A stretch of 64,000 nt of DNA, taken from positions 3,697 through 67,696 of the forward strand of contig CAZKPK010000001.1 of the NCBI GenBank assembly GCA_964554645.1, given 5' to 3'. Shown here one piece after another: positions 21,045 through 23,222 of this stretch (positions are counted from its first letter, which is position 1; every line of letters starts with the position of its first letter). Below the pieces are notes generated by a model, which ran no database searches, was not told the DNA's origin, and was given only the letters and a program-made list of their open reading frames with translations. Source of the DNA: an uncultured Candidatus Saccharibacteria bacterium. Lineage in GTDB: Bacteria; Patescibacteriota; Minisyncoccia; Phycocordibacterales; UBA9973. Both the position numbers and the translations under genes were made by a program.

Positions 21045-23222
21045 ATGGAAAAAATAGAAGCTAAAAAGAAAATACAGAAATTGCGAAGCGAAATCGCGCG
21101 ATTGAGAAATGCATATCACATAGAAAATGCGCCGAATGTTACCGATGACGTTTATGATTCTCTAACTCGCGAATTGAAAGAAATTTTACAAAAATATCCG
21201 GAGTTCAAAGACGAAAATTCAGGAGAGAACAGAGTGGCAGGCAAACCACTGGATAAATTTGTCAAGGTAAAACATCAAAATAGAATGCTCTCTTTAAACG
21301 ACGCTTTCTCTTATGAAGAGCTCTATGATTGGGAGAAAAGGGTAAAAAGATTACTTGGCGGTTTAACCGCCAAGTTAGAATATTTTTGTGAAGTAAAGTT
21401 TGACGGTCTGGCGGTGTCATTAATTTATGAAGATGGAAAATTTGCGCAGGGCGCAACTCGCGGAGATGGATTTGTTGGCGAAGATATAACCCAAAATTTG
21501 AAAACTATACATTCGATTCCTCTAGAATTACCCCCTCCCCTTAATAAGGGGAGGGTTGGGGAGGGGTCAATTCCCGCATTTCTAGAAGTTCGCGGCGAAG
21601 CGCTAATATCAAAAAAAACACTTATTTTACTTAACAAAAAAAATGCAAAAGAAGGTAAAGCGCTTTTTGCCAACACTCGAAATGCCGCCGCTGGAAGCCT
21701 TCGTCAGCTCGATCCGGAACTTGCCAAAGAAAGGCATTTAGATTTTGTGGCTTATGATTTAAACTTGGCGGTTAAACCGCCAAGTGGCGGTTTAACCGCC
21801 AAGTGGCCACAAAATCATTCTGCTAAACATGAAATGCTTCGAAGTTTAGGATTCAAAGTTGAAAAATTAGAGGCTAAATGCGAGAACTTAGAAAAAGCGA
21901 TATCTTTTACAAAAAAATTTGAAAAAATAAGACCCAATTTTCCATATGGCACAGATGGCATTGTAATATCCGTGGACGATTTAAAATTACAGGAAGTTTT
22001 GGGTGTTGTCGGCAAAGCTCCGCGCTATATGGTGGCCTTTAAATATCCAGCCGAAAAAGCAACTACTTTAGTAAAAGAAATTTTGATTAATGTCGGGCGC
22101 ACTGGCGTTTTAACACCGCTGGCAATTTTTGAACCAACCTTGGTCGCGGGTTCGCAAGTGTCCAAAGCGACTCTGCATAATATGGATCAAATAGAGCGTT
22201 TGGATTTACGAATCGGAGATACCGTGGTGATCGAAAAAGCGGGCGATGTCATTCCAAAAGTGGTGGAAGTATTGGCTCGGATGCGCACTGGCAAAGAAAA
22301 GAAATTTAAAATGCCAAATAATTGTCCGACTTGTGAGGGGAAGGTGGAAAAGAGAAAGTTGCCAGCGCAACAATCTGTCGCTTACTATTGTTCGAATCCA
22401 AAATGTCCAGCCAAGGATGAAAGATATTTGGAGCATTTTGTGTCCGTGTTTGAAATTTACGAACTTGGCCCAAAAATTTTAAGCCGTTTTAAAGATGAAG
22501 GACTGATTACCGACGCAGCCGATATTTTTACGCTGACGAAGGAGGAAATAGCGCCTTTGGAACGATTTGGGGAAAAGTCCGCAGAAAATATTATTAAAGA
22601 AATAGAAAGCAAGAAGAAAATTACGCTTTCCAAATTTCTTTGGGCGCTGGGGATACTCCATGTGGGGGAAGAGACAGCGCGAGATTTAGCGGATCATTTT
22701 GGAACTTTAGAAAAATTTATATCTTTAATTAGGCAAGAGAAAAGTTTGAATAATTCTCCCGCCTTCGCCCTCGGAGACAAAGGACAGGGGACCCACGGCT
22801 CCTTGAATTCTTCAAACTTTTCTCTTGATATAGAAAACATCGGTCCGGCGGTATCAAAAAGCCTTTATGATTTTTTTGGCGATAAGCGTAATTTAGATTT
22901 TTTAGAAAAGTTGCAAAAAAACGGGGTGGTGGTGGAAAAAATGGAAAAAAGAAAGGCGGGAAAATTTACCGGATTTACTTTCGTTTTAACCGGCACGCTC
23001 TCGCAAATGTCGCGCGAAATTGCCAAGGAAAAAATAATTTCTTTAGGCGGTAAAGTGGCGGGTTCTGTTTCTAAAAATACTTCTTATGTAATAGCTGGCG
23101 TTGAGTCCGGTCATTCCGACTCTGAGAGTCGTCAGACTCGAATGAGCTCCAAACTCAAAATTGCCGAAAGACTAGGGGTAAAAGTAATAAACGAAAAAGA
23201 TTTCTTAAATATGCTACACTAA
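21045..23222 (+). CDS. ligA: NAD-dependent DNA ligase LigA, carrying two in-frame palindromic insertions
   Basis: KxDG adenylation motif ([10 protein letters not shown]), OB fold, Zn finger (CPTCEGK...C), HhH and BRCT domains. Extra segments encoded by the hairpin at 21531-21568 and Family-C repeat at 21764-21808. Confidence 0.95.
21531..21568. repeat. GC-rich hairpin (CCCTCCCCTTA-a-TAAGGGGAGGG plus TTGGGGAGGGG) in-frame inside ligA
   Basis: encodes ..[14 protein letters not shown].. between conserved IPL and EVRGE blocks, about 9 aa more than E. coli LigA at this loop. Confidence 0.7.
21764..21808. repeat. Family-C palindromic repeat (CTTGGCGGTTAAACCGCCAAG plus TGGCGGTTTAACCGCCAAG) in-frame inside ligA
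   Basis: perfect palindromes; encodes [14 protein letters not shown]; same element in rpoC at 53547-53598. Confidence 0.85.

Follow-up and report, generated by a model that had tools for sequence, protein, structure and literature searches.

The question raised by this locus is how one short palindrome came to stand, in frame, inside two unrelated genes. The DNA is a 64,000-nt window (the whole stretch analysed; AT-rich, with ~38% GC) from an uncultured bacterium labelled Candidatus Saccharibacteria, in which the original prediction had placed a palindrome, here called family C, inside ligA and again inside rpoC. The palindromes are present in both genes with the sequence and coordinates claimed, and the gene identities hold by NCBIfam. 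The analysis described below points to family C probably being a repetitive extragenic palindromic (REP)-type element of a REP/RAYT-like system (RAYT, REP-associated tyrosine transposase) widespread in Patescibacteria, the candidate phyla radiation (CPR), with its intragenic copies being survivors in permissive loops. Among the observations behind this reading, the palindrome brackets HUH/Y1 transposase genes, a RAYT-like protein of the window has a RAYT as its closest structural match, and the palindromes co-vary with the RAYT lineages.

The family-C unit and its copies in ligA and rpoC

The basic unit is TTGGCGGTT[T/A]AACCGCCAA, a 9-bp stem with one unpaired central base, which is usually lengthened to 11 bp by AC...GT. 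The resulting consensus, (C)ACTTGGCGGTT[T/A]AACCGCCAAGT(G), is a GC-rich hairpin of 19–25 nt whose T-centre and A-centre forms are mutual reverse complements. The element had been described as a perfect palindrome followed by a second inverted unit; the inverted units are real, but each has an odd T or A centre on a 9–11 bp stem and is not strictly perfect. Five units were found at three sites in the window, compared with 0.02 expected (19-mer with 3 mismatches allowed, 100 shuffles), and there are no others. All five lie inside ligA or rpoC and all are in frame, read as LAVKPPS and/or GGLTAK, confirming that the copies preserve the reading frame. The original prediction listed only the two doublets and missed the third site, a single unit in ligA. 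The two genes and the three sites are as follows (the palindromes carry no strand):

21045-23222, + strand: ligA, NAD-dependent DNA ligase, 725 aa (NCBIfam NF005932, E 4e-220; aligned to 2owo; AlphaFold2 (AF2) model)
50120-53791, + strand: rpoC, RNA polymerase beta', 1223 aa (TIGR02386, E 0)
21353-21375: single family-C unit in ligA, ACTTGGCGGTTTAACCGCCAAGT, read as (L)LGGLTAK(L), just 5' of the KxDG adenylation motif
21763-21804: inverted family-C doublet in ligA, [A-centre][T-centre], 19-nt offset, 42-nt palindrome
53546-53595: inverted family-C doublet in rpoC, 25-nt offset, with GCGCGC flank and spacer, read as RLAVKPPSALGGLTAK

The ligA doublet consists of ACTTGGCGGTTAAACCGCCAAGT followed by GGCGGTTTAACCGCCAAGT, with arms of 20 bp around a 2-nt centre, and encodes 14 residues. 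In rpoC, positions 53546-53576 read GCGCGCTTGGCGGTTAAACCGCCAAGCGCGC (15+1+15), positions 53552-53595 form a 44-nt perfect palindrome, and the segment encodes RLAVKPPSALGGLTAKAE; it adjoins the 5' side of the conserved VLGIT...AASFQ block, directly upstream of which it had been placed. The predicted RNA hairpins have folding energies of −16 kcal/mol (z −4.6) for the single ligA unit, −37 kcal/mol (z −7.6) for the ligA doublet and −42 kcal/mol (z −7.3) for the rpoC doublet. An Rfam scan of all 64 kb returned nothing at gathering score (no tRNA, rRNA, riboswitch or leader), and no catalogued RNA family covers the hairpins. Presumably the inserts are transcribed and translated along with their host genes. 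The window also holds an RNase III gene at 38618-39313 (Pfam matches on an identical Logan contig), and the 20–22 bp doublet hairpins in ligA and rpoC mRNA are potential RNase III substrates.

Distribution across genomes and use of reading frames

The exact 19-mer was searched in 185,579 species-representative genomes (596 Gb), which yielded 82 loci, ~78 of them from Patescibacteria/CPR assemblies. The CPR carriers include Nomura-, Giovannoni-, Campbell-, Zambryski- and Kaiserbacteria, Paceibacterota, contigs labelled 'Saccharibacteria' and unlabelled metagenome-assembled genomes (MAGs). The non-CPR loci are singletons in Methylobacter, Bizionia and Spirochaetaceae, which are accounted for by the ~4 chance hits expected from simple arithmetic (2 × 596 Gb / 4^19); one carrier contig labelled 'Gammaproteobacteria' is 79% identical to a CPR contig. 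A scan of viral contigs with a 23-mer gave zero matches, hence no evidence for phage carriage. Genome fragments were fetched for loci in other genomes, and each such locus is referred to below by a label of the form Lnnn.

The copies in ligA and rpoC are therefore not unique: the 82 loci together with the window contain 104 exact units, 53 of which lie inside open reading frames (ORFs) of at least 150 aa, the definition of intragenic used here, and 51 outside. The host genes are unrelated to one another, encoding LigA, RpoB, RpoC, GyrB, UvrC, GatB, TatD and Mur ligases as well as SecA, the ATP synthase gamma subunit (AtpG), DprA, MiaA, KsgA and DnaG. Four of the six frames of the family-C unit are free of stop codons. 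Counted over 36 independent intragenic sites, the unit is read as LAVKPP in 18 cases, as GGLTAK in 16 and as WR[L/F]NRQ in 2 (binomial p = 1e-8 versus equal use of the four open frames), the two orientations being similarly frequent. This frame bias is absent from copies in short ORFs. We infer that the bias reflects tolerance of small flexible peptides, that is, selection after arrival, targeting being the alternative.

Among 119 units there are 12 doublets, 11 of the form [A][T], one [T][A] and none direct; all 12 are intragenic, with spacings of 19 or 25 nt only. Since both spacings equal 1 modulo 3, an [A][T] doublet reads LAVKPP-x-GGLTAK on either strand. Many intergenic copies have variable yet complementary flanks that lengthen the stem, and a longer form, CCCCCCAC-TTGGCGGTTWAACCGCCAA-GTGGGGGG, recurs in four genomes (L026, L031, L037 and L075), suggesting sub-families with extended stems. 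A comparison of orthologous UvrC doublets, at ~2800-2840 of L002 and 4140-4180 of L019, revealed T:A to C:G changes in both units (GGCGGCTAAGCCGCC), i.e., four concerted substitutions that leave the palindrome of palindromes perfect. Family-C palindromes thus evolve in concert, as seen in the UvrC gene of L002.

RAYT-like HUH transposase genes bracketed by palindromes

At several loci, three family-C units lie ~210 and ~470 nt apart, and a protein of 212–220 aa is encoded between them. Such genes occur in at least eight genomes (L052, L016, L033, L045, L010, L054, L032/L020 and L067), with one unit at either end of the gene and one inside it in frame, the internal position varying by lineage. 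The proteins carry the motifs YH-x-x-NRG, N-H-[FY]-H (HUH), GSLFQG-x-FK and Y-[IV]-[NH]-L-N, and they match the Pfam family Y1_Tnp (IS200-like transposase) at E 6e-5 to 9e-8, with L052 (6e-5) and L016 (9e-8) above the cutoff. An attempt to derive a polarity for the unit from its central T or A relative to the RAYT gene gave orientations that are inconsistent between loci, and none was assigned.

The window encodes a relative of these proteins:

34085-34780, + strand: RAYT-like HUH/Y1 transposase gene, 231 aa (homology, Pfam, AF2/Foldseek)

Its product is 34–38% identical to those of L016 and L052 (E 3e-25 and 8e-24, respectively). An alignment of 20 sequences at 29–87% identity showed that N88-H89-x-H91 (H89-F-H91 in the window) and Y156, within Y-I/V-H/N-L-N, are invariant. 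The AF2 model (pTM 0.70) was compared with known structures by Foldseek, and the top PDB match was 4er8_A, the E. coli REP-associated tyrosine transposase with its REP hairpin (E 1.8e-4, probability 1.0, TM 0.52; Messing 2012, PMC3479197), followed by the TnpA proteins of ISDra2, IS200 and IS608. An alignment profile searched against PDB sequences gave E 0.08–0.3 and was superseded by the fold search. Homologues fall into at least 7,810 clusters of the protein collection; the named ones are annotated as transposase or as JGI 'REP element-mobilizing transposase RayT'. Wherever an organism is given, it belongs to Patescibacteria. A Logan assembly made independently contains the identical sequence for the RAYT region of the window. 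The neighbourhoods of these genes differ between relatives and genomes, and L032 carries two different RAYT lineages 5 kb apart.

The window gene is cognate to a palindrome family other than family C, namely TCCCATAGGTC[A/G]GACCTATGGGA (family CCATAGGTCNGACCTATGG for short), of which the following copies were located (no strand):

34063-34085: 5' flanking palindrome, TCCCATAGGTCAGACCTATGGGA
34370-34392: internal in-frame palindrome, SHRSDLW, directly after the HUH motif
34768-34800: 3' flanking palindrome with a 16-bp stem, which gives the RAYT stop codon (TAG in CCATAGG)
14690-14732: two dispersed intergenic copies (starts 14690 and 14714), identified by sequence

The two dispersed copies lie between a T2SSE-like ATPase gene and a T2SSF gene, and one of them is a compensatory variant, CCACAGG..CCTGTGG, which is the cognate form in L087. 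Relatives of the window gene at 64–70% identity carry lineage-specific palindromes in the same three places, at the 5' end, at the 3' end and inside the gene. The variants are:

Window and L083: CCATAGGTC.GACCTATGG
L087 and L088: CCACAGGTCAGACCTGTGG
L084 and L085: GCATAGGTC.GACCTATGC
L086: CCATAGGC...GCCTATGG

The arm changes in the internal copy are both compensatory and synonymous, and the palindrome is kept in relatives of 64–87% identity. In more distant homologues (L082, L001, L061 and the second L032 gene) the arrangement is retained but the palindromes are quite different; the second L032 gene, which has no internal copy, is the sole exception to the arrangement. Altogether, 12 RAYT-like loci carry ~10 lineage-specific palindromes, with compensatory changes on both arms. 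About nine palindrome families were counted in the window itself.

Insertion sites and comparison of filled with empty alleles

Besides its three family-C units, the ligA gene hosts at least three further inserts that look foreign. At site 1 (21353-21375), the window allele is longer by one residue (+3 nt) than both E. coli LigA and LLPQNTKFNYF, the commonest allele among 120 relatives; the LigA of L030 has the same family-C unit there. At site 2 (21763-21804), the excess is 7 aa over E. coli LigA and 27 nt over L030. Both sites are hypervariable among the 120 relatives (68–75% identical), and their occupants differ by lineage, being family C, decayed family C (LLGSLAPKL, LLGGKTSKL, LLGSSSARL) or quite different foreign peptides. 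In the AF2 model of the window LigA, every insert is low-confidence coil between conserved secondary-structure elements: the site-1 segment is coil between H90-103 and E113-119, and doublet residues 243-251 are coil with pLDDT <50. The hypervariability, the varied occupants and the coil indicate that the ligA sites are hot spots that have repeatedly taken up foreign DNA.

Compared with each of the solved beta' chains listed, and also with L006, the closest available rpoC relative (84% identical), the rpoC doublet adds 8 aa; L006 has EIEGKE at the insert site (...RMAEIEGKEAKAE... in L006 versus ...RVARLAVKPPSALGGLTAKAE... in the window). The peptide is thus absent from distant orthologues, since E. 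coli LigA and the solved beta' chains listed have gaps at these places, and it differs among near ones, the L006 RpoC and the many sequences at both LigA sites being examples. Neither of the two conditions that were set to refute the earlier proposal therefore holds, and the observations support a mobile palindrome over a conserved protein sequence, although the word 'inserted' needs a caveat. Relative to element-free alleles, the length differences are +3, +27 and +24 nt at the window sites and +18 and 0 nt at two family-C sites of other genomes; they never equal the length of the element.

The other inserts in ligA were recorded alongside. An unrelated palindrome at 21525-21573, CCCTCCCCTTAATAAGGGGAGGG followed by a further GGGGAGGGG, encodes 12 residues (+9 aa relative to E. 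coli), and peptides similar to its product (PPSPLQGEGRGGEV) fill ligA site 1 in other Nomurabacteria. A GC-rich segment of ~60 nt at 22750-22815 encodes 20 residues with pLDDT <50, in a region ~27 aa longer than in E. coli LigA; nearly the same peptide is found at site 2 in other LigA relatives, so the segment looks mobile. A C-terminal insert at 23100-23140 encodes 14 residues (+12 aa relative to E. coli, pLDDT <50) and holds a small palindrome, CGACTCTGAGAGTCG; the repeat finder detected no palindromic structure in 22750-22815 or 23100-23140. As for rpoB, the genes of L050 and L064 contain a family-C doublet encoding 13 residues, in place of which the window has an unrelated segment of equal length at 47517-47591 (SVASKDGQGSVSN); the segments of all three are ~14 aa longer than the corresponding part of B. 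subtilis beta.

Proposed mechanism and alternative explanations

The association of the palindrome with RAYT-like genes leads us to propose that the RAYT would mobilise the element by a single-strand mechanism. A cognate HUH/Y1 single-strand DNA transposase, whose gene is bracketed by the element, would recognise the extruded hairpin on single-stranded DNA (ssDNA) and copy or move it to new places. Since intergenic DNA is scarce in these tiny genomes, many such insertions would hit genes, and the survivors would be those that leave the host frame intact, are not read in a TAA-containing frame and add a harmless flexible peptide (LAVKPPS or GGLTAK) to a surface loop. Such a survival filter would account for the observed positions of the copies, which fall in variable loops of LigA, beta', beta, GyrB, SecA, UvrC and others. 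Every enzyme lineage would have its own hairpin, family C being that of one such lineage, and several lineages would share one genome.

Several observations weigh against this reading. Since the length differences never match the element, the chemistry of insertion cannot be read off. Boundaries and target duplications were sought in five filled/empty pairs (rpoC versus L006; ligA versus L030; gyrB of L066 versus the window; rpoB of L050/L064 versus the window; UvrC of L019 versus L002), and no pair was clean, the relatives being too diverged (70–84%). Copy number is low, with at most 12 exact copies recovered from one MAG, and the loci were recovered by exact match, which makes the conservation of the 19-mer across genomes partly a matter of ascertainment. 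A position matrix of the 104 copies shows the symmetric (C)AC...GT(G) alone, and the 5' GTAG/CGTC tetranucleotide of classical REPs was not found in it. On the enzyme side, scores against the NCBIfam RAYT equivalog NF047646 (REP_Tyr_transpos) were 18.3 and 23.9 bits versus a cutoff of 80, the window protein falls below the gathering score of Y1_Tnp (E 5e-4, 20.6 versus 23 bits), and the AF2 models of the window LigA and RAYT are both of only moderate quality (mean pLDDT 66). Furthermore, no family-C RAYT was found in the 64-kb window, which leaves activity in this genome hypothetical; the family-C copies of the window may be either orphans or dependent on an enzyme encoded outside the window.

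Could the palindromes instead be host cis elements, such as DNA-uptake signals read by the CPR competence machinery, protein-binding sites or terminators, spread by biased uptake or gene conversion plus selection, with a merely regulatory link to the RAYT genes? Many intergenic copies do resemble bidirectional terminators (A-tract, stem, T-tract) with extended stems, concerted compensatory changes keep the palindromes perfect, pilus/secretion ATPase genes of the window adjoin two copies, and alleles with and without the element are often nearly equal in length, as conversion in situ would produce. However, the density of five units in 64 kb is far below that of uptake sequences, several unrelated palindrome families occur in one genome, and each family follows a particular RAYT lineage; the decay of copies in LigA relatives makes strong selection on single copies doubtful, and both orientations and all open frames occur. 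As a general explanation a cis role is therefore unlikely, although individual intergenic copies may act as uptake signals or terminators. Multiplication of the hairpins without any transposase, by template switching during replication or fold-back synthesis, with RAYT-like genes as frequent targets, would suit the doublets, which are palindromes of palindromes, the variable complementary flanks that lengthen many stems, and the length changes that misfit simple insertion. Yet it leaves unexplained why identical 19–23-mers stand at dozens of sites that are unlinked and belong to different CPR classes, and why each palindrome variant is strictly paired with a RAYT lineage, and we give it little credence.

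The peptide itself might be thought to be the selected entity, a functional protein module with an incidental DNA palindrome, given that the same peptide recurs in several essential proteins and that two of the four open frames dominate. About half of the copies lie outside genes, though, the two peptides are opposite orientations of one DNA sequence, the hosts are unrelated, the sites lie in hypervariable loops for which the model shows disordered coil, and distant orthologues lack the peptide, all of which renders a protein module very improbable. An artefact of assembly or sequencing (adapter, chimeric fold-back) is barely conceivable: nothing specific speaks for it, apart from amplified DNA being able to yield palindromes, and against it stand ~38 independent assemblies that many laboratories obtained by many methods, frames that always stay open, orthologous sites in related genomes and the identical recovery of the window RAYT region in the Logan assembly.

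The REP/RAYT-like reading can be extended to a broader proposal, which we put forward as a tentative possibility that may well prove wrong. Patescibacteria would hold a large undescribed branch of REP/RAYT systems whose hairpins routinely write loops of 7–18 residues into essential proteins (beta, beta', LigA, GyrB, SecA, PheT and others) and are a main source of CPR lineage-specific insertions, and the transposase gene would need its own in-frame hairpin. As part of the same tentative proposal, the conserved internal hairpin could be, e.g., autoregulatory or a third recombination site. If true, the identical 19-mer across CPR classes would point to exchange of the system between lineages or to an extreme constraint on recognition. 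The main reading, for its part, offers a concrete origin, open to testing, for small insertions in the essential proteins of ultra-small bacteria. For annotators and phylogeneticists, it is a warning that gaps in alignments of CPR marker genes (rpoB, rpoC, gyrB, ligA) can be selfish DNA. The ~10 palindrome/enzyme pairs with compensatory changes offer clean material for studying hairpin–transposase co-evolution, and such ultra-short symmetric hairpins with their enzymes could interest developers of HUH-based ssDNA tools.

Comparison with known systems

The finding is a variant of the REP/RAYT type and not categorically new. Work on REP/RAYT was reportedly published by Nunvar in 2010. A substantial literature covers REP/RAYT systems, the REP doublets known as REPINs and the structure of TnpA_REP (Bertels & Rainey 2011, PMC3116915; Ton-Hoang 2012, PMC3333891; PMC3479197; PMC5581495; PMC8266576). 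As in those systems, short GC-rich hairpins recur at separate sites and often form inverted doublets (REPINs, or bacterial interspersed mosaic elements, BIMEs), each family is tied to a Y1/HUH gene flanked by the repeats, several families share one genome, the palindromes evolve in concert, and structurally the enzyme comes closest to TnpA_REP. However, family-C units are shorter (19–25 nt) and almost perfectly symmetric, and they lack the conserved GTAG or CGTC at the 5' foot of the classical REP hairpin (PMC3733652, PMC6006769). In addition, whereas classical REPs are extragenic, about half of the family-C copies are intragenic and in frame, including those in rpoB, rpoC, ligA and gyrB; almost all of the RAYT genes examined hold an in-frame copy of their own palindrome, and the Patescibacteria proteins are longer (212–234 aa) and below the NCBIfam RAYT equivalog cutoff. 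RAYTs have been described as single-copy per lineage per genome and vertically inherited (PMC5581495).

REPs inside ORFs have precedent. Di Nocera et al. (2013, PMC3733652) reported REP singles and dimers within ORFs, many of them replication and repair genes, adding 20–30 extra residues, as well as REP ends that supply stop codons, and family C and the RAYT-linked palindromes resemble these in the in-ORF singles and dimers, the replication and repair hosts and the stop codons at REP ends. Those REPs, from Opitutus, Rickettsia, Thioalkalivibrio and others, carry the GTAG/CGTC tag and are intragenic in a minority of cases (PMC3733652), whereas family C is untagged, ~50% intragenic and found in a different phylum. 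No paper linking RAYT or REP to CPR/Patescibacteria was found in the literature searched, and a 2018 survey of HUH proteins does not mention Patescibacteria RAYT/REP; the present reading would extend REP/RAYT biology to a phylum for which that search turned up no description.

The IS200/IS605 elements (IS608, ISDra2), the second-best fold matches, likewise combine a Y1 HUH transposase with hairpins in ssDNA. Their ends are two different imperfect subterminal hairpins and the whole insertion sequence is multi-copy, whereas here one short palindrome stands at both ends and at the internal site, and the hairpin alone appears to be dispersed. DNA uptake sequences (DUS/USS) differ in their density of ~1 motif copy per kb, compared with five units per 64 kb for family C, and in that at least eight other palindrome families accompany family C in the window.

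The classic precedent for in-frame palindromes is offered by the Rickettsia palindromic elements (RPE), which Ogata et al. (2000, cited in PMC3733652) are said to have described as lying in frame in protein genes. RPE-1 is ~100–150 bp long and restricted to Rickettsia, and to our knowledge no transposase has been identified for RPE. Both cases involve selfish palindromic DNA in frame in functional genes of a reduced genome, where surface loops tolerate it. Family C differs in its length (19–44 nt), in its occurrence in Patescibacteria and in having a candidate cognate enzyme.

Other palindrome families in the window

The pheT gene (29439-31367) contains three different in-frame palindromes: one at 29540-29562, read as VQHRVLD, one at 30343-30373, read as YPHTNDIGVGV, and one at 30622-30642, read as PHMSDMW. 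The 23-mer at 29540 is found exactly at L001:660, and the palindrome at 30622 belongs, as a compensatory variant, to the family cognate to the window RAYT. Palindromes of other families lie between genes at 9528-9587, 15978-15995 and 45834-45860, with the sequences CTCCGAC..GTCGGAG (twice), GACCCGATGACCATCGGGTC and CAAGATAGTGCTTAAAGCACTATCTTG.

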